35,517 nucleotides of DNA, from positions 1-35,517 of the forward strand of contig CAZLCY010000005.1 of assembly GCA_964558075.1 (NCBI GenBank), given 5' to 3'. The translations under genes were made by a program, and so were the position numbers. This document shows positions 7,760 to 15,242 of the stretch, piece after piece. The notes beneath the pieces are model-generated. The model worked only from the letters and a program-made list of their open reading frames with translations, had not been told where the DNA came from and did not search any database. Within the stretch, counting starts at the first letter, position 1, and every line of letters begins with the position of its first letter. Origin of the DNA: an uncultured Bacteroidales bacterium (GTDB lineage Bacteria > Bacteroidota > Bacteroidia > Bacteroidales > UBA1715).

Positions 7760-7833
7760 GGCTCCGTAGTTCAACTGAATAGAATATCAGATTTCGGCTC
7801 TGAGGGTTACAGGTTTGAATCCTGTCGGAGTCA
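7760..7833 (+). tRNA. tRNA-Arg, anticodon TCG; CCA not encoded
   Basis: Acceptor GGCTCCG/CGGAGTC, anticodon arm TCAGA-TTTCGGC-TCTGA, T arm ACAGG-TTTGAAT-CCTGT. Confidence 0.93.
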
Positions 7834-7992: not shown

Positions 7993-9123
7993 GTGGATAT
8001 AGCGATAAATACAAGATTTCTTATAAAAGATAAGCTCGAAGGTATAGGGAGATTTACCTTCGAAACAATTAAACGCATGTGCGAAAATCACCCGGAACAC
8101 ACATTTTACCTGTTATTCGACAGAATGTATGACAATGAATATATATTTGCCAAAAATGTAAAACCGGTAATTGTGCCTTTTCAGGCTCGTCACCCCTTAT
8201 TGTGGAAGTTTTGGTTTCATGCTCAATTACCGCGAGTGATAAAGAAGATTAACCCCGATATTTTCATTTCGACAGACGGATACGTACCAAGCGGCATTTC
8301 TGCACCGATAGTGAATGTTATTCACGATTTGAATTTCGAACACAATCCGCATCACGTTCCTGGCGGGGTTTTGCGGTATTATAAAAAATATTTCCCCTTA
8401 TACGCTGCTGCGTCTACGCGAATTGTAACTGTTTCTCAATTTTCGAAGCAAGATATTGCGTCAAAATATAATATACCGACAGAAATTATTGATGTTGTTT
8501 ACAATGGCATAAGCGATGGGTTTTCGCCACTTAACGAGGAACAAAAAAAGTCAATAAAGCAGAGTTATGCCGAAGGACACGAATACTTTATGTATATTGG
8601 ATCCTTGCATCCACGGAAAAATATTGCCCGCTTACTGGAAGCATTTGAAAAATTCAAACAAGATACCGGTTCTTCACATAAATTACTCATTGTTGGTGAA
8701 GAAATGTTTTACTCCAAAGCAATACAAAAAGCTTATACAAACAACACCTATAAACATGATGTGATTTTCACTGGACGTGTTTCTGATACCGAATTAGCAC
8801 TCTTATTAGGATCGGCATGTGCACTCACATATGTGCCTTTGTTCGAGGGGTTTGGTATTCCTATTTTAGAAGCATTTGCCTGTGATGTTCCGGTTATTAC
8901 CTCCAATTGCACATCTATGCCCGAAGTTGCCGGAGAAGCTGCATTATTGTGCGACCCGCGAGATATTGCCGATATTTCCCGTGCAATGAAGCGTATTACT
9001 GAAGATGATGCTTTACGTACCGAATTGGTTAATCAAGCACGCATTCAACGAGATAAATTTTCGTGGGATAAAACAGCCGATTTGTTATGGCAGTCGGTTA
9101 TAAAAAGTTATGAGAAAAATTAG
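7993..9123 (+). CDS. Glycosyltransferase family 4 (group 1)
   Basis: IHDL, TVSQFSK, GSLHPRKN, FEGFGIPILEAFAC, SMPEVAG; GTG start. Confidence 0.92.
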   Translation: MDIAINTRFLIKDKLEGIGRFTFETIKRMCENHPEHTFYLLFDRMYDNEYIFAKNVKPVIVPFQARHPLLWKFWFHAQLPRVIKKINPDIFISTDGYVPSGISAPIVNVIHDLNFEHNPHHVPGGVLRYYKKYFPLYAAASTRIVTVSQFSKQDIASKYNIPTEIIDVVYNGISDGFSPLNEEQKKSIKQSYAEGHEYFMYIGSLHPRKNIARLLEAFEKFKQDTGSSHKLLIVGEEMFYSKAIQKAYTNNTYKHDVIFTGRVSDTELALLLGSACALTYVPLFEGFGIPILEAFACDVPVITSNCTSMPEVAGEAALLCDPRDIADISRAMKRITEDDALRTELVNQARIQRDKFSWDKTADLLWQSVIKSYEKN

Positions 9124-10282
9124 AGCCCATTATATTTTTGATGGTTTTCGACTTCGAAAAAACACACAACTTGTTGTTTCTGATGATGGCATAGTTCAAG
9201 ATATATATTCTCTTTCCGAACCAATTGAGGAAGAAGCCGGGGTTGAATTTTACGACGGTATACTTTGTCCCGGATTTATAAATTCACATTGTCATCTGGA
9301 ACTATCACATCTACATGGTCATATTCCGCAAAAAAGCGGATTGCCCGAATTCGTATCCTCAGTTGCTCGCTTAAAAAAAGAAACACCTTTTTCCGAAATT
9401 GCCTGCAAACAGACAGATGAATTAATGTGGAATAATGGTATAGTTGCAGTTGGCGATATTTCAAATTTTTCGGACACATTTGAACTCAAAAAACACAGCT
9501 CTATACAATATCATACATTCATTGAATTGTTTGATTTACATGAAGACTCACGCTCCGAATATGAACGAGGAAAGAAATTGTTTAAATTATACCAGGAACG
9601 AAAACACGTCTCGCTCTCTCCCCATGCCCCCTATTCATGTTCACGAAAATTATGTGCAAAAATAGAAGCACATGCCAAAGATTATGAATATTCGGTAACA
9701 ATACATAATCAAGAACATGAATCGGAAAACGAAATGTTTGCAGAGCATAGAGGTCACTTATTTGACATTTTTCAAAAGAAACAAGCTCATCCAATTTTAC
9801 ACACAAAATATCCCTCTTCACTTCGCTTTTCTGCCAGTGCTTTTGAACAAGTCCGCCACATACTATTTGTGCATAATGTGTATATGTCCGAACAGGATAT
9901 TCGTTTTTTGATTGAAGAACGAGGCATCAAAAATTTCACCTGTGTAATATGTCCGTGCAGCAATTTATATATACACAACGACCTGCCGCCACTCCCGTTG
10001 TTTATGAAATATTCGGTGCCATGGGCAATTGGAACCGATAGTTTAGCATCAAATACCGATATTTCTATGATACAAGAAATGTTGTCGCTTCAACAAGCAT
10101 TCCCCGAACTTTCGCTCGAACAATTACTACATGCGGCAACATACAGAGGAGCGTATGCCTTGAATTTACAAAACCGATTCGGACAATTTGCAAAAGGAAA
10201 AAAGCCGGGAGTTATGTTACTCGAACACGTTGATTTACAAAAAATGCAATTCACACCGGAAACAAAGGTTCGTATGCTGTAA
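9110..10282 (+). CDS. Metal-dependent amidohydrolase (deaminase-like)
   Basis: PGFINSHCHLE, PHAPYS, HNQE, LFVH, GTDSLASN metal ligands; overlaps the GT4 stop. Confidence 0.85.
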   Translation: MRKIRAHYIFDGFRLRKNTQLVVSDDGIVQDIYSLSEPIEEEAGVEFYDGILCPGFINSHCHLELSHLHGHIPQKSGLPEFVSSVARLKKETPFSEIACKQTDELMWNNGIVAVGDISNFSDTFELKKHSSIQYHTFIELFDLHEDSRSEYERGKKLFKLYQERKHVSLSPHAPYSCSRKLCAKIEAHAKDYEYSVTIHNQEHESENEMFAEHRGHLFDIFQKKQAHPILHTKYPSSLRFSASAFEQVRHILFVHNVYMSEQDIRFLIEERGIKNFTCVICPCSNLYIHNDLPPLPLFMKYSVPWAIGTDSLASNTDISMIQEMLSLQQAFPELSLEQLLHAATYRGAYALNLQNRFGQFAKGKKPGVMLLEHVDLQKMQFTPETKVRML

Positions 10283-10363
10283 TATTGAATAGAAACACAC
10301 ACAGAATCTCTTTTATACCACCAAACCCTGCATATTTATTTAAGACGGCTGTGTCTTCGGCTG

Positions 10364-10477
10364 TGTTTTTTTGAAATAAACCTACGCCATTAAAAACCGA
10401 TAGATTGAGTTCAACCGAGAATGTAGGTTGGGGATTGTGTGATGGTTGGATTTGTGATTATTGGGCGTTCGTTGTTT
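10364..10477 (+). repeat. Direct repeat family B, copy 1 (left-truncated)
   Basis: 10364-10462 matches 13694-13792 with 9 mismatches in 99 nt by manual alignment. Confidence 0.9.
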
Positions 10478-10513
10478 TTTTTCGATTATTGTTGTCCGTT
10501 TCATTTTTAGTTG

Positions 10514-10521
10514 TAAATTTG
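10514..10521 (+). promoter_or_regulatory. -7 box (TAAATTTG) for the methyltransferase
   Basis: TAnnTTTG 31 nt upstream of ATG 10553. Confidence 0.5.
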
Positions 10522-10552
10522 TAACCATTGTGTAAGGTTAAACAACTTGGTT

Positions 10553-11791
10553 ATGAAAGAATATTTATCGCTTTCCGAAGCATCTAAACTTATTGGCAAA
10601 AGCAAAGAAACCCTTAGACGGTGGGATAGAGAGGGCAAATTGTCTGCCATTCGTGAGCCAATGAGTAACTATCGTGTTTATAATCGTAAACAAGTTGAGA
10701 CTCTTTTCGCTGACTTTTTTAGTCACGATGTTGAAGATATTGTTTCAAACTATGTTGAACCGCATAATGAATACACTGTTCTAGAATTATTTGCCGGAGC
10801 CGGTGGTTTGGCTGTTGGTATGGAAAAGTCAGGTTTAAAATGTGTTGCTTTGAATGAAATTGACAAGTGGGCCTGTCAAACTTTACGAAAAAATCGTCCT
10901 AACTGGAAAGTTTTGGAAGGCGATATTAAAGACTTTGATTTTTCAGAATATCACAATAAAGTAGATGTCGTAACTGGTGGTTTTCCTTGCCAAGCTTTTA
11001 GTTATGCAGGTAAAAAGTTAGGACTTGCAGATGCAAGAGGGACTCTGTTTTATGAGTTTGCAAGAGTTGTCAAAGAAGTAAATCCACCCATTTGTATTGG
11101 AGAAAATGTCCGAGGTTTGCTTAGTCACGATAACGGAAACACCTTGCAAGGAATGATTTCTATATTAGATGAAATTGGTTACAATGTTGTTCCAGTAAAA
11201 GTATTGAAAGCCATAAACTATAAAGTTCCACAAAAGAGAGAGCGATTAATATTAGTTGGCGTTAGAAAAGATATTGATTTGAAATATGAATATCCGAAAC
11301 CACATAATAAAGTTTACAATCTGAAAGATGCCTTGAAGAAAGGCGAACTTTATGATACAAATGTACCAAAATCACCTGGTGCAAAATATCCACAAAGCAA
11401 AAAAGCTGTTTTGGATTTAGTGCCACAAAAAGGTTATTGGCGTGATTTACCACTTGATATTCAAAAAGATTTTATGGGTGGCAGTTTTTATTTAGGAGGT
11501 GGAAAAACTGGAATTGCAAGGCGTATTGGTTGGGATGAACCATGTTTAACATTAACTTGTAGTCCTGCTCAAAAACAAACCGAAAGATGTCACCCCGAAG
11601 AAACTCGACCTTTTACAGTTCGTGAATATGCTCGTATTCAAACTTTTCCGGATGATTGGGTTTTTGAGGGATCAATAGCTCAACAATACAAACAAATTGG
11701 AAATGCAGTCCCTGTTAATTTGGGAACTGAAATCGGTTACTCAGTTTTAAGATTTTTAAATCAATACTACAAGTTGTCGAAGCCAAGATAA
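10553..11791 (+). CDS. dcm: C5-cytosine DNA methyltransferase with N-terminal MerR-like HTH (M.Eco47II/Sau96I-like, GGNCC inferred)
   Basis: LFAGAGG, GGFPCQAFS, ENVRG, QKRERL, QIGNAV; TRD TLTCSPAQKQTERCHP; N-terminal SKETLRRWDREGKL...NYRVY. Confidence 0.92.
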   Translation: MKEYLSLSEASKLIGKSKETLRRWDREGKLSAIREPMSNYRVYNRKQVETLFADFFSHDVEDIVSNYVEPHNEYTVLELFAGAGGLAVGMEKSGLKCVALNEIDKWACQTLRKNRPNWKVLEGDIKDFDFSEYHNKVDVVTGGFPCQAFSYAGKKLGLADARGTLFYEFARVVKEVNPPICIGENVRGLLSHDNGNTLQGMISILDEIGYNVVPVKVLKAINYKVPQKRERLILVGVRKDIDLKYEYPKPHNKVYNLKDALKKGELYDTNVPKSPGAKYPQSKKAVLDLVPQKGYWRDLPLDIQKDFMGGSFYLGGGKTGIARRIGWDEPCLTLTCSPAQKQTERCHPEETRPFTVREYARIQTFPDDWVFEGSIAQQYKQIGNAVPVNLGTEIGYSVLRFLNQYYKLSKPR

Positions 11792-12531
11792 TAGCTGTAA
11801 TTCTCAAAAGTAATTTGGTCTAAAACTGTTCTTTTACTGGTTTTAGTTTCCGATTTAATTTCTTCTAATGCAGAGTTTTCTGCAATTCCTTCGGTCTCTT
11901 CAACTGTTTTTAGATAATCTTCGATTGCACATGGAAGAGCTTTGTATAACTGAAACATTGCATCTTGTTGTCCTGATAGTAAAGCATAAAATTGGTCGCC
12001 CGAAATTTTATAAACCCTGCTATGACTATATTCTTTGCCGTTTATATCGTCACTCCATAATTCACAAAAACTGCCTTTTGCAAGAATTTGTACCCAATAG
12101 CATTTTGCTTGTTTGTAATCGTCTGCATAGCGTTTTAACTTTTGAAAAAGTGCCTCGGCTGCACTACTGTTCATAGTATTGTGTTTGTTTTTTATGTCTG
12201 CAAAAAGCGTATCATCTGTTGCTTTAATGTCATAACCGCTCAAATTCCCGGCTTCAAAACCTTTTATACCGCCCAAAATTTGTTCGTGAAAAGTTCCGAT
12301 TGAATTATTAATCGATTTATCAATTTGTCTTAAAATCTCTAATTGTATTAACTTTTCTTCGTCAATATCATTGAATTTTGAGTCGAAAGTTAGTTTGATT
12401 GTATCAACCTTGTTTGAATAAAAATTCTTCTTTGTGATGTTGTTTTTCGCCTTTAAATATGCATTGTGAAGATTCTCTATACAGGTTAACAAATATTGGT
12501 CAGATATAAAGTTTACGTATTTATTTTTCAT
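11767..12531 (-). CDS. Type II restriction endonuclease, Eco47II family
   Basis: RQIDKSINNSIGTFHEQ, GYD, ADIKNKHNTMNS (PD-(D/E)XK type); convergent with the MTase and overlapping it by 25 nt. Confidence 0.82.
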   Translation of the reverse strand: MKNKYVNFISDQYLLTCIENLHNAYLKAKNNITKKNFYSNKVDTIKLTFDSKFNDIDEEKLIQLEILRQIDKSINNSIGTFHEQILGGIKGFEAGNLSGYDIKATDDTLFADIKNKHNTMNSSAAEALFQKLKRYADDYKQAKCYWVQILAKGSFCELWSDDINGKEYSHSRVYKISGDQFYALLSGQQDAMFQLYKALPCAIEDYLKTVEETEGIAENSALEEIKSETKTSKRTVLDQITFENYSYYLGFDNL

Positions 12532-12601
12532 TCAATCGTGTTGTTTTTAATGTAGTAAAGTTAGCATTTATTGTTGTTTCTCTGTCTTGAACACGGTCTT
12601 T

Positions 12602-12634
12602 TTACAATGACGTTATTTTATAAGGTGGTTTCAT
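12602..12634 (-). pseudogene. 10-codon stub MKPPYKITSL*, resembling the N-terminus of Bacteroidota Fic-family proteins
   Basis: ATG AAA CCA CCT TAT AAA ATA ACG TCA TTG TAA directly behind a -7 box and operator; Fic similarity is from recollection of MKPPYxIT starts. Confidence 0.45.
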
Positions 12635-12644
12635 ATTTTCAATC

Positions 12645-12677
12645 TGATAGTATCATATGATAGTATCAAAGATACTA
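12645..12677 (-). promoter_or_regulatory. Double palindromic operator (TGATAGTATCA x2) overlapping a -7 box TATCTTTG (12667-12674)
   Basis: Copies at 12645-12655 and 12658-12668, plus inverted repeat TAGTATC-AAA-GATACTA at 12661-12677. Confidence 0.65.
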
Positions 12678-12850
12678 GTTTTTTTAGATATAGAGAAAAA
12701 ATCACGAAACTTTTAATCTGTGCTCTTACATTGAAAGTGTTTTTCTCAAATACACCTACGCCATTGAAAACCTATAGATTGAGTTCAACCGGGGATGTTG
12801 GTTGGGAATTGTGTGGTGGTTGAATTTCTGGGTATTAGGCTCGGTTATTC
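12668..12850 (+). repeat. Direct repeat family B, copy 2
   Basis: Shares core CCATT.AAAACC.ATA.ATTGAGTTCAACC...GGTTGGG.ATTGTGTG.TGGTTG.ATTT with copies 1 and 3, and ~70 nt more upstream with copy 3. Confidence 0.9.
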
Positions 12851-12866
12851 ATCTTCAATTATTTCT

Positions 12867-13523
12867 TTATTGTTTTTTTGAACCTATATTATCCCAAAAT
12901 TCTTTAGTTAAATAAAATACAGTATCTATAAAATACAAGGTGTCATTTTTTGTCAGCACATTCTCATCGTGTAAATCTTCTATTATAACACCTAGATTAG
13001 GGTTGTAATAGTCATTGTTCTTAGTATTTTTAAATCCATTATTTGCCATGAATTTTTTGACTTCATTAATGTCTGTTATATCACTAATTGTAACAAATGG
13101 TTGTTTGACAACAGCATAAATAGTTTCTTCAATTTTTGAAAAACCTAACAATTCATAGGCTGTATCATTAAAAAAATAATTGTGAAGAAGGAGGTTGTAA
13201 AAATAATCTACCCATGAACAATAATAGATAGAATCATTTAATTTTAGTACGTATTCAGAATCTTTTAAATATACTTTTTGCTCAGCTCCTTCACTTACAT
13301 ATTTTGAAAAGTCAATATCATTTATCCAAAGCTTTTCTTGAAAAATAAACTTTTCTAATTTCTTTGTTTCTTTTTCTTTGAATTGCTTTGTTTATTCAGT
13401 CGTTGTGCTTGTTCGCGAGCCTTCATTAAGGTAACTGGCTGCTGCTTGGATAATATTTCCGAACCTAACTTCGCTCTTTCCTGAAATGACATCATAAAGT
13501 TTTTGTTTTAGAGAGTTACACAT
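12867..13523 (-). pseudogene. Polyvalent-protein kinase (Kinase-PolyVal-like) with in-frame TAA at codon 44
   Basis: Frame from ATG 13523: MCNSLKQKLYDVISGKSEVRFG...TTTE*TKQF...YVSEGAEQKVY...VLKLND...HNYFFNDTAYELLGF...EDLHDENVL...FIDTVF; stop at 13392-13394. Confidence 0.78.
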
Positions 13524-13621
13524 GTACAAATATACTAAAATTATTATATAGTATCAATTCTGTATTTTGATCGGTAGTTAGTCTATCTCAAAAACCTCCG
13601 ACCATTTCCTCTATTTTTATA

Positions 13622-13794
13622 TAAAAGTACATTTTTTTTCGGGATATGGAGAAAAACTTACTAACCTTTTAACCTGTGCTTTTAAAATGAAAATGTTTTT
13701 CTGAAATAAACCTAAACCATTAAAAACCTATACATTGAGTTCAACCAAGAATGTAGGTTGGGGATTGTGTGGTGGTTGGATTTATGGTTATTCA
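13622..13794 (+). repeat. Direct repeat family B, copy 3
   Basis: Aligns to copies 1 and 2 as described. Confidence 0.9.
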
Positions 13795-13858
13795 TAACTG
13801 TAATTGAATTTCATTTCTTCATTATGTAAAATGAATTTGTTTGTACGATAATTATTGA

Positions 13859-13866
13859 TAATTTTG
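13859..13866 (+). promoter_or_regulatory. -7 box (TAATTTTG) with upstream TTTG for ribE-comF
   Basis: TAnnTTTG, with TTTG at about 13836-13843. Confidence 0.5.
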
Positions 13867-13931
13867 TGTAGTTACAAAACAAGATACTGTATCAAAATAC
13901 GATTATAATACAAATTAAAAAATAAACAAAT

Positions 13932-14537
13932 ATGTTTTCAGGAATAGTAGAAGAATTTGCGGTAGTACAAAATATTGAACAAGACAAAGAGAATGTACAT
14001 ATCACATTGTCATGCAGTTTTGTAGATGAATTGGATATTGATCAAAGTATTTCGCACAACGGAGTATGTTTAACGGTGGTAAAAAAAGATGCGACTACAT
14101 ATACGGTGACAGCTATTAAAGAAACCTTGCTTAAATCAAATTTGGGCGATTTGCAGGTAGGCAGCAAAGTCAACTTAGAACGCAGTATGCCTATGAATGG
14201 ACGTTTGGATGGGCATATTGTACAGGGGCATGTCGATCAAACAGCAGTTTGTACTGAAGTTACCGAAGCAGATGGAAGTTGGTATTATACTTTGGAATAC
14301 GAACCGAGTCAGGCAGATTATATTACCGTAGAAAAAGGTTCGGTAACCGTTAACGGCGTAAGTCTTACTGTCGTAAATTCAAAATACAAATCGTTTCAGG
14401 TTGCCATTATACCATACACATATGAGTACACCAATTTTCATGAAATTGTACCCGGGACCAAAGTTAATTTAGAATTCGATATTATTGGAAAATATATTGC
14501 CAAGTATCTTCAGCTTCAAAACACCAATAAGGAATAA
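13932..14537 (+). CDS. ribE: Riboflavin synthase (alpha chain)
   Basis: MFSGIVEE start, NGVCLTV, VNLER, GHIVQGHVD, KGSVTVNGVSLTV, VNLEFD. Confidence 0.95.
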   Translation: MFSGIVEEFAVVQNIEQDKENVHITLSCSFVDELDIDQSISHNGVCLTVVKKDATTYTVTAIKETLLKSNLGDLQVGSKVNLERSMPMNGRLDGHIVQGHVDQTAVCTEVTEADGSWYYTLEYEPSQADYITVEKGSVTVNGVSLTVVNSKYKSFQVAIIPYTYEYTNFHEIVPGTKVNLEFDIIGKYIAKYLQLQNTNKE

Positions 14538-14546
14538 ATTCACGTA

Positions 14547-15242
14547 ATGATTCGCTCATTATTTTCACATATATTTCACTTGTTTTATCCGGACAATTGT
14601 GTTGTATGTGGTGGGGAATTACGAATAAGCGAACGAGTAATGTGTTCTGCTTGTTTAATAGATATCCCACGCATCTATTTTCATAATACAGAGCGTAACC
14701 CATTGGAGGAATTGCTATGGGGGCAAATTCCATACGTACGAGCGAGTTCTCTGTTTTATTATTTTAAAGACAATACCTATTCATCGCTTATATATGACTT
14801 GAAATATAAAAACCGCCCCGATATTGGCGTTTTTTTAGGCGAATTGTTTGCTGATGAGCTTGATAAATCAGGATTCCTTAATGATATAGATTATATTGTT
14901 CCCATTCCTTTACATAAAAAACGTCTCCGTACCCGGGGATATAATCAGAGTGAAAAAATTGCTGAAGGCTTATCGGCATATTCAGGAATACCGGTTTTAC
15001 CGAGAGTAATAAAACGCACCGTACATACCCAAACCCAAACGCAGAAAAACAAAGAAGAACGAATGCGGAATGTGAGTAATATTTTTAAAGTAACCAAATC
15101 AAAAGACATTCACAAAAAGCATATATTAATAGTAGATGACATAATTACCACCGGGGCAACAAGTATATCGTGTGCACAATCGTTAAAAGAGTCTGATTCT
15201 TCGGTACGTGTGAGTATTGTTTCGTTGGGGCTGGCGAGATAA
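14547..15242 (+). CDS. comF: ComF family phosphoribosyltransferase-like protein
   Basis: CxxC...CxxC zinc ribbon, LKY, VPIPLH, RGYNQS, IVDDIITTGAT. Confidence 0.9.
   Translation: MIRSLFSHIFHLFYPDNCVVCGGELRISERVMCSACLIDIPRIYFHNTERNPLEELLWGQIPYVRASSLFYYFKDNTYSSLIYDLKYKNRPDIGVFLGELFADELDKSGFLNDIDYIVPIPLHKKRLRTRGYNQSEKIAEGLSAYSGIPVLPRVIKRTVHTQTQTQKNKEERMRNVSNIFKVTKSKDIHKKHILIVDDIITTGATSISCAQSLKESDSSVRVSIVSLGLAR

Follow-up and report, generated by a model that had tools for sequence, protein, structure and literature searches.

A modular repeat linking accessory-gene cassettes in three species of one Bacteroidales genus, with possible turnover by linker-anchored recombination

Introduction

How do defence and toxin-antitoxin genes come to stand in tidy arrays that differ between species, though canonical integrons are rare in Bacteroidota? 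The question is raised by a short interval of the 35,517-nucleotide stretch analyzed here (the window; positions 1 to 35,517 of contig CAZLCY010000005.1, assembly GCA_964558075.1, from an uncultured Bacteroidales bacterium of lineage UBA1715), in which copies of a non-coding repeat separate accessory genes between an amidohydrolase gene and the riboflavin synthase gene ribE. The locus is a small and fully bounded example of such an array, with two core genes, three linkers and two cassettes. Our best explanation, to which we give a probability of roughly 45%, is that the repeat is a modular cassette linker, present in three species of one Bacteroidales genus, and that the cassettes turn over by recombination anchored in these linkers. 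The comparisons below establish the anatomy of the linker, its restriction to a few species, the accessory nature of its cargo, at least three variable slots and a recent lateral exchange of a restriction-modification (RM) unit, as well as the cargo-side edge of one module, B, as a repeated end of homology between genomes.

The genome that holds the window, G000, is a metagenome-assembled genome (MAG) of 2.53 Mb in 265 contigs, 85% complete, and with its congeners G001, G002 and G003 it makes up the whole sample of the genus. Contigs of G000 carry C numbers and loci of relatives carry L numbers (L066 and L067, for instance, in G002). Relatives were compared at fetched loci, and gene calls are open reading frame (ORF) heuristics. 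We note that several arrays in G000 end at contig ends. Because the genes adjoining the copies lie on the window minus strand, we read the repeat on that cargo-gene strand, and upstream and downstream follow it; an earlier reading, made from the letters of the window alone (the sequence-only reading), had used the opposite of this functionally sensible strand.

A Repeat Family Built from Two Modules

A repeat search of the window recovers one family of three direct copies (10290-10489, 12664-12863 and 13620-13819), the alignment of which has a mean column identity of 79% and contains the invariant ATTGAGTTCAACC. With copy 3 as the BLAST query in G000, the hits include copy 2 (83% identity, E 9e-42) and copy 1 (91% over 99 nt, 9 mismatches, E 6e-34), while an iterated nhmmer profile scores the three window copies at E 1e-34 to 8e-47 among 25 hits over 16 contigs. 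This similarity is far above chance expectation. Repeat search, BLAST and nhmmer thus agree on the three same-strand copies that the sequence-only reading had located, and BLAST returns its count of 9 differences in 99 nt between copies 1 and 3; Pfam domains likewise bear out the genes it had named on the two flanks (Amidohydro_1 and riboflavin synthase). Its positions for the repeat were right, but the true repeat is longer and two-part, with copy 1 being the 3′ module alone. The TTGA-GT-TCAA dyad that it had proposed as an invariant core fails in the wider family, in which only 5 of 30 aligned members have the dyad and most of the others read CTAAAT at that site, versus CTCAAT in the dyad carriers (hand counts).

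The three copies contain no transposase, terminal inverted repeat or shared ORF, in line with the earlier description. They also match no named element, since Rfam 15, searched down to E 1-10 with the window and seven array loci, returned tRNAs alone; no match to a coding gene was seen either. Paper searches (supplements unopened) found no published account of the repeat family. BLAST across the genome places the repeat at many loci, in arrays with other cargo at many sites; the copies are clustered rather than singly scattered, and the cargo is not identical in the relatives.

The two modules, which we call B and A, are each also found apart from the other. Module B is ~100-110 nt long and starts at, or a few bases past, the stop codon of the upstream cargo gene. 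Of 39 B copies, drawn from three genomes, 27 have the stop codon of a co-directional ORF (70 aa or longer) no more than 45 nt from the model anchor at B's cargo-side edge, and 20 have it no more than 5 nt away; the remaining copies comprise 3 at contig ends and 9 farther from an ORF, including array-terminal ones (e.g., before ribE). The composition of B (C 0.30 and G 0.15, versus 0.17 and 0.17 genome-wide), its position and its lack of structure (see below) weakly suggest that B may be a structure-poor, moderately C-rich end-of-transcript element.

Module A, which lies downstream of B, is ~120 nt long, and thus longer than the sequence-only reading had seen. All 31 full-length A copies have the box TAYTTTTA at one fixed place, and in their alignment (72% mean column identity) this promoter box is invariant. 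The usual box is TACTTTTA, and the variant A of copy 2 has TATCTTTG, a perfect match to the Bacteroidetes promoter −7 consensus, TAnnTTTG, as given in the cited passages (PMC7366714). Module A is accordingly read as a putative Bacteroidota-type promoter plus a 60-80-nt leader for the next gene. By hand count, a co-directional ORF stands just 3′ of A in 15 of the 19 A copies of G000, none does in 2, and 2 are unexamined. Because an A module precedes each cargo gene, each cargo appears to be set up for its own transcription. On the minus strand, from ribE to the amidohydrolase gene, the order of the window array is B3-A3-kinase-B2-A2-(Fic relic)-RM-B1, that is, three B modules versus two working A modules.

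Two 5-bp helices that exclude one another can form in the leader, either of them being paired in ~87% of cells. Covariation in the leader is not above that of shuffles (the observed score is reached by 210 and by 32 of 500), and no consensus fold emerges for A plus leader (−1.2 and 0.0 kcal/mol). The leader end and the start of B both bear a short GTTGSC-like motif; by hand count, 20 of 36 copies have CGTT where the leader ends.

Cargo and Distribution of the Linkers

Across three genomes, the cargo bracketed by modules is almost all accessory, as judged by Pfam and PADLOC. It includes the toxin-antitoxin pairs ParDE, HigBA (two), VapBC, MNT-HEPN/HepT (two), Phd-YoeB (two) and UPF0175-DUF3368, together with RM genes, Fic genes (five, one with VbhA), PD-(D/E)XK nucleases and DUF1016; PADLOC candidates among it are PDC-S01, S13, S14, S18 and SoFic, and many small cargo proteins belong to no family. 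Some cargo is decayed, namely the window kinase, a RhuM fragment and half a PD-(D/E)XK gene. This annotation, taken across arrays, supports the earlier suggestion that the repeats bound accessory and defence cassettes. Different arrays of G000 have no cargo DNA of at least 150 nt in common outside the modules.

The family is confined to few species. BLAST matches to the repeat number 16 in G000 and then 19 and 16 in G002 and G003, with the repeat absent by BLAST from G001 and from 37 other genomes of the family and order. Counted with a primary-sequence model, A is present in 22 copies in G000, 33 in G002, 11 in G003 and 0 in G001, and three of the family's 20 other genomes each yield a single weak hit. 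A pattern scan of 185,579 species genomes returned 6 stretches, two of them in one MAG of a Bacteroidales bacterium, and the other four, in unrelated taxa, are taken as chance. A metagenome scan with the amidohydrolase protein found 3 distant loci (56, 39 and 21% identity) and no strain-level alleles. Of the weak hits to the model of A, one is a lone A-like promoter-leader ahead of a major facilitator superfamily (MFS) transporter gene, from a different genus within the family (G013, L141 1054-1139). We considered whether A derives from the leader of an MFS gene and rejected this, as the MFS genes behind A-like elements in G013 and G002 are not orthologous.

Variable Slots and a Reconstructed Exchange

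The amidohydrolase-ribE interval differs across the four genomes and is a variable slot, as the sequence-only reading had proposed. In G001, it is an empty gap of ~50 nt; in G003, it is ~450 nt long, with a 358-nt stretch that has no BLAST similarity to the window and with no repeat in the gap (best nhmmer E 0.15); and in the window it spans 3.6 kb and holds two cassettes. In G002, at least five cassettes, all set apart by linkers, follow the amidohydrolase gene as far as the contig end (Fic, PD-(D/E)XK, YoeB-Phd with a methyltransferase, the RM pair again, and a RhuM fragment), with ribE on another contig behind a partial B. The sister species thus supply empty, short and long alleles. Two further slots also differ between species, one beside a MiaB-like gene and the other in the comparison of C119 versus L101.

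One exchange can be reconstructed at the window slot. The RM block (~10464-12612) is 93.6% identical to that of G002 over 2251 nt, with the flanking core genes at 75-78%. Directly before the RM DNA lies the relic of a Fic gene, and the first 23 nt of this relic (12612-12634) are the start of the Fic gene that stands behind the same linker variant in G002, where the gene (Fic / SoFic) is intact (BLAST of 12612-12837 against L066 2918-3130, 79%). Because the window keeps both the variant linker and 23 nt of the Fic gene found there in G002, we conclude that RM replaced Fic. By hand count, the two genomes are ~95% identical in the cargo, 90% over the 40 nt of B1 closest to it and 78% over the 51 nt beyond, and this drop across B1 would fit a crossover inside B. 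The exchange probably had one joint at or inside B, with the other joint, 23 nt into Fic, being illegitimate. Among 401 genomes sampled from the order, 34 have the RM block; identity reaches 88% over 2.1 kb in a different family, where the block has the same left end and unrelated flanks (loci L130-L137), and the homology of the RM unit to genomes of other families ends at 10460-10476. The block is promiscuous and came to lie against B. In G002, an 8-nt inverted motif, TTGGGCGT, and its complement lie near both ends of the RM unit.

Two other loci provide further homology ends. A Fic-VbhA cassette and its upstream linker are shared by G000 and G002 at 85.5% in different surroundings, and this homology ends 14 nt past the Fic stop codon, after which G002 continues with B and G000 with a HigBA unit joined mid-leader. 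At C119/L101, G000 and G003 share B and its downstream side (4.9 kb at 87.5%) and are wholly different from B's cargo-side edge onward. Finally, B copies are most alike within one array, with a mean identity of 83.5% (13 pairs), compared with 74.4% to other arrays of the same genome (126 pairs) and 73.8% to other genomes (296 pairs).

Other Modules of the Linkers

The linkers are mosaics in which other modules occur. Module X is an alternative 3′ module of ~150-170 nt with conserved ends and a central part that is variable in length. Copies of X (C109 774-919, 3213-3358, 4282-4434 and 5277-5448; C135 2555-2704) stand behind ParE, TPR, HigA, VapC and DUF4143 ATPase genes. An attC-like nature of X was considered and rejected, as a strong local hairpin forms in some copies (z −3.3) and not in others (z −0.17), and the ends are unpaired. 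Element Y is a ~170-nt hairpin-rich palindromic miniature inverted-repeat transposable element (MITE) that matches itself on both strands and has no Rfam match. In several linkers it separates the 3′ module from the promoter module (C109 1826-1999; C135 949-1117 and 3739-3894; C139 6157-6325; C208 1857-2025; C4 25168-25329).

In G003, B opens a longer repeat, which continues for at least 110 nt beyond B, and at least ten copies of it, 90-100% identical, stand at unlinked loci, each directly behind an ORF. Loci with this long repeat are L098, L100, L103-L106 and L073. Such near-identical copies look like a recent expansion.

Tests for an Integron Enzyme and for Known Mobile Elements

The sequence-only reading had offered two routes for cassette turnover, the one integron-like and the other by homologous recombination. 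The arrays do have an integron-type layout, in that the cassettes share one orientation, the ORF is directly followed by the site, and relatives differ in content. An integron-like mechanism in the strict sense is nevertheless contradicted by three observations: no integron integrase (IntI) passes the cut-off, B is unfolded, and each cassette has its own promoter module. The IntI model TIGR02249 is above its cut-off in none of the four genomes of the genus (best 97.9 bits, cut-off 265), and there is no recombinase gene between or beside the amidohydrolase and ribE genes. Folded as DNA, the three copies of B on both strands give z +0.12, +0.26, +0.63, +0.66, −0.22 and −0.22, and RNAalifold on 29 copies gives no consensus structure (−0.74 and −2.91 kcal/mol). 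B as an intrinsic terminator or an attC-like hairpin is therefore rejected, as it folds no better than shuffled sequence, and membership among attC clusters that have no integron integrase (CALINs) falls with it, as this calls for attC sites and B does not fold.

Homologous recombination, the other route, fits better: copies are more alike within an array than between arrays, and the reconstructed exchange has one joint at or inside the repeat and one that is illegitimate.

Other mobile elements were rejected on similar grounds. The copies lack an inverted repeat that would pair their ends, which speaks against a MITE. Repetitive extragenic palindromic (REP) sequences or bacterial interspersed mosaic elements (BIMEs) with a REP-associated tyrosine transposase (RAYT) are not supported, as B has no palindrome and PF01797 occurs in all four genomes, including the repeat-free G001. 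A non-autonomous element derived from the IS200/IS605 insertion sequences (IS) is countered by the lack of a stable hairpin in B and of a consensus fold in A plus leader. The Y1 transposase was also discounted as a mobilizer, as it occurs in repeat-free G001 and the copy beside an array is an independent IS. This IS200-type element (C10 27960-28744, L013), which carries a Y1 gene as well as paired end hairpins, lies inside module A of the array beside hemE, and its insertion cuts the module just upstream of the promoter box.

The genus does contain one tyrosine recombinase of interest. This is a protein of 483 aa encoded on C219 (L108, 1-4215) and extended by ~200 aa at its N terminus; three co-directional ORFs without a Pfam family come after its gene. 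It is the genus's best scorer against the IntI model, matching in two pieces with model positions 180-239 unmatched, yet stays far below the threshold. Model R1 of module A has no hit on C219, and nhmmer finds no A, B or X there. G002 has two Xer-sized recombinases only and none of the C219 type, despite having the most copies and 96% completeness, and G003 has only fragments of a C219-type recombinase. We also observe that the last ~40 codons of the C219 recombinase gene and ~150 nt downstream recur as relics on other contigs (C16 2679-2943, C13 23425-23693, C75 1684-1926, C117 1024-1278), that these relics are cut at nearly the same point of the gene, and that the stretch downstream of the C219 gene holds a perfect TACTTTTG promoter box.

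Weighing the Explanations

We suggest that cassettes would be gained, lost and replaced mainly by host recombination, with the dispersed linkers serving as portable homology. Donor DNA from congeners would enter the cell, followed by exchange through double crossovers or through one homologous linker anchor combined with an illegitimate joint; unequal exchange or gene conversion between neighboring copies may also act, and an integron-type enzyme on folded sites would not be needed. We rank this recombination first because of the illegitimate joint, the identity ramp across B1, the likeness of copies within arrays and the weakness of the enzyme candidate; a site-specific enzyme in trans, a selfish linker and pure regulation follow in that order. 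Several points weigh against linker-anchored recombination, however. Stop codons of unrelated genes abut B too regularly for recombination alone, and homology ends at the same B edge in three genome comparisons, which is what a fixed crossover point would give. The copies are a poor RecA substrate because few long identical runs are shared, the longest seen, between copies 1 and 3, being ~22 nt. The B1 ramp rests on 40 and 51 nt and is statistically not firm, and no empty linker, in which a leader is joined directly to B, was found, as none of the six pattern matches is such a fusion. The near-identical copies in G003 would point to recent active spread or strong conversion. Lastly, the promoter role of A and the transcript-end role of B are predictions from sequence, and the C-over-G skew of B is moderate only.

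The second explanation is a dispersed analogue of the integron, in which a tyrosine recombinase other than IntI would act in trans at a fixed point, the cargo-side edge of B or X, with many chromosomal landing pads of which solitary B copies would be the empty ones. We hold this to be unlikely. It would account for the recurrence of the sharp B edge as a homology end, for the stop codons that abut it, for the single orientation of the arrays and for the window array having one B more than working A modules; the GTTGSC-like motif at the leader end and B start could also serve it, and a candidate exists in the C219 recombinase, the best scorer of the genus against the IntI model, whose C-terminal relics with their promoter-bearing repeat lie on module-holding contigs. 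It has to contend with a B that neither folds nor has a consensus structure, with hairpins in X that are local and not conserved, and with imprecise joints (the Fic relic upstream of RM, and HigBA joined mid-leader); the copy-richest genome, G002, lacks a C219-type enzyme, G003 has fragments only, C219 carries no modules and the window slot no recombinase. Less probable again is multi-locus gene capture, in which cassettes with their own promoter-leader would enter at the cargo-side edge of a non-folding pad B through an enzyme acting in trans, either a C219-type tyrosine recombinase other than IntI or one of the host's Xer enzymes.

Lower still we place the idea that the linker itself is a selfish, non-autonomous mobile element that inserts behind genes with its own promoter, so that its link to defence would arise only since accessory islands tolerate insertions. 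Its dispersal in multiple copies over 16 contigs in few species, the near-identical G003 copies at unlinked loci, the mosaic of B, X, A, the G003-specific extension and the MITE Y, the assembly breaks at copies and the IS200-type transposase gene beside one array all suit such an element. But no presence/absence case has both flanks conserved, each comparison keeping B and one flank with the other side replaced; neither A nor B shows terminal inverted repeats or target duplications; Y1 transposases occur also in repeat-free G001, the array-side one being an independent IS inserted in A; and the cargo beside the modules is overwhelmingly accessory. The least likely account treats the repeat as shared regulatory DNA only, a common promoter, leader and transcript end kept by selection with no role in gene movement. 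High conservation of box and leader, the two exclusive leader helices and the single A-like element before an MFS transporter gene in another genus are what one would expect from regulation, whereas homology between genomes that ends exactly at modules, orthologous slots that differ in cargo, leader covariation no better than in shuffle controls, and 80-100% identity over 100-300 nt among dozens of copies, which functional selection leaves unexplained, are not.

Feature Map of the Window Array

The features of the array are collected in Table 1. Glycosyltransferase and Amidohydro_1 genes lie upstream of the array, and ribE, with two Lum_binding domains, lies downstream of it. The conserved flank on the amidohydrolase side is seen in a BLAST match of 9000-10463 to G002 L066 513-1973 at 75%, and B copy 3 with a 45-nt flank (to 13838) also precedes ribE in G002 (BLAST of 13742-14983 against L067). 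An RM pair and a polyvalent-kinase gene, the cargo named by the sequence-only reading, are both present, with the correction that the kinase gene is interrupted. The kinase domain lies whole in one frame of 174 codons (12870-13391), which lacks a start codon before 13151; a different frame (13358-13507), across the A-rich run near 13355-13391, holds the likely start. The kinase stop codon is 22 nt from the B2 model anchor. The tandem GATAGTATCA motif is shared with repeat 2 of G002 in the alignment and resembles an operator, a predicted function. A tRNA gene (7760-7833; Rfam RF00005, 59 bits) lies outside the array, ~160 nt upstream of the glycosyltransferase gene.

Table 1. Positions, strands and supporting evidence for the features of the amidohydrolase-ribE array in the window
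Feature	Position	Strand	Basis
Amidohydrolase-side flank with decayed promoter-module remnant	10283-10363	-	Alignment; same flank beside first repeat of G002
Module B copy 1, terminal (resident) copy, no working module A after it	10364-10463	-	BLAST, nhmmer, alignment
RM cargo unit, laterally exchanged as a block	10464-12612	.	Pfam, PADLOC, BLAST
C5 methylase with N-terminal MerR-type helix-turn-helix	10547-11791	+	Pfam, PADLOC
Eco47II-type endonuclease	11767-12531	-	Pfam, PADLOC
Relic of displaced Fic gene (start codon + 10 codons)	12602-12634	-	BLAST, alignment with G002
Two tandem copies of 10-nt motif GATAGTATCA, just downstream of copy 2 promoter box	12646-12667	.	Read directly
Module A copy 2, variant form	12665-12740	-	A-model hit 12665-12720
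−7 box TATCTTTG of copy 2, pointing at endonuclease gene	12667-12674	-	Read directly
Module B copy 2	12741-12850	-	nhmmer, alignment; 17 nt past kinase stop codon 12867-12869
Kinase-PolyVal cargo, interrupted	12867-13507	-	PF18762, E 3e-65, profile 1-160
Module A copy 3, box TACTTTTA + leader, toward kinase gene	13566-13700	-	nhmmer and A-model hits 13578-13676
Module B copy 3, beside ribE, no cargo upstream	13701-13794	-	BLAST, nhmmer, alignment

Comparison with Known Systems

The linker arrays belong to a known kind, cassette arrays, and it is the repeat family itself for which no description was found. Like sedentary chromosomal integrons and CALINs, they consist of small accessory cassettes in the same orientation, rich in toxin-antitoxin genes, with a lineage-specific repeat behind each ORF and content that varies between relatives. 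Unlike sedentary integrons, the arrays come with no IntI over the cut-off in any of the four genomes and have a repeat that is not attC-like in its folding, each cassette has its own promoter module, and many small arrays stand at separate slots rather than on one platform. The cited passages of the IntegronFinder 2.0 preprint state that CALIN arrays can exist without a recombinase and that canonical integrons are very rare in Bacteroidetes (10.1101/2022.02.28.482270).

Judged by the cited passages of its description (a preprint by Ross et al.), rAID-1 of gut Bacteroidales is the closest published system in the same order: these describe co-directional accessory protective genes with repetitive intergenic sequences, reminiscent of integrons according to the authors, and define a cluster as two or more co-directional low-GC genes headed, at the 5′ end, by the gene for a XerD-like recombinase whose identity to a B. 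fragilis reference recombinase is 44% or more (10.1101/471110). By that account, the order, the co-directional arrays and the low G+C content of the cargo are shared with the arrays described here. The differences are that the window array has both ends in view, with core genes and no recombinase there, that the cargo consists of RM, toxin-antitoxin and phage-defence candidates, not type VI secretion system immunity genes (no specific search for those was made), and that the recombinase-headed cluster of G000, on C219, is without A or B modules.

The BIMEs and REP sequences of enterobacteria are lineage-specific, multi-copy mosaics of short extragenic modules, usually located behind genes, and the linkers resemble them in each of these respects. 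REP units are, however, short palindromes that are not tied to accessory cargo and bring no promoter for the next gene, whereas B has no palindrome and does not co-occur with a RAYT-type Y1 transposase (Y1 being in all four genomes). In defence islands and "minimal mobile elements", a slot between core genes holds differing cargo that is exchanged through flanking homology, without a dedicated enzyme. The fixed slot between two core genes with different defence cargo in relatives is like such hotspots; what differs is that the proposed homology lies in dispersed non-coding linkers inside the slot rather than in core genes, and that the same linkers format cargo at many slots.

Conclusions

With alleles of three lengths in sister species and one exchange in which RM replaced Fic, the amidohydrolase-ribE locus makes cassette turnover without an integron integrase testable, and equally the idea of a portable unit of gene end and promoter that would insulate each cassette. 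Should B's edge prove to be where an enzyme acts, this edge would be a new kind of gene-capture site; and if capture at many loci holds true, the linkers would constitute a dispersed, self-expressing counterpart of the integron in Bacteroidales, which would explain the uniform formatting of unrelated defence genes.

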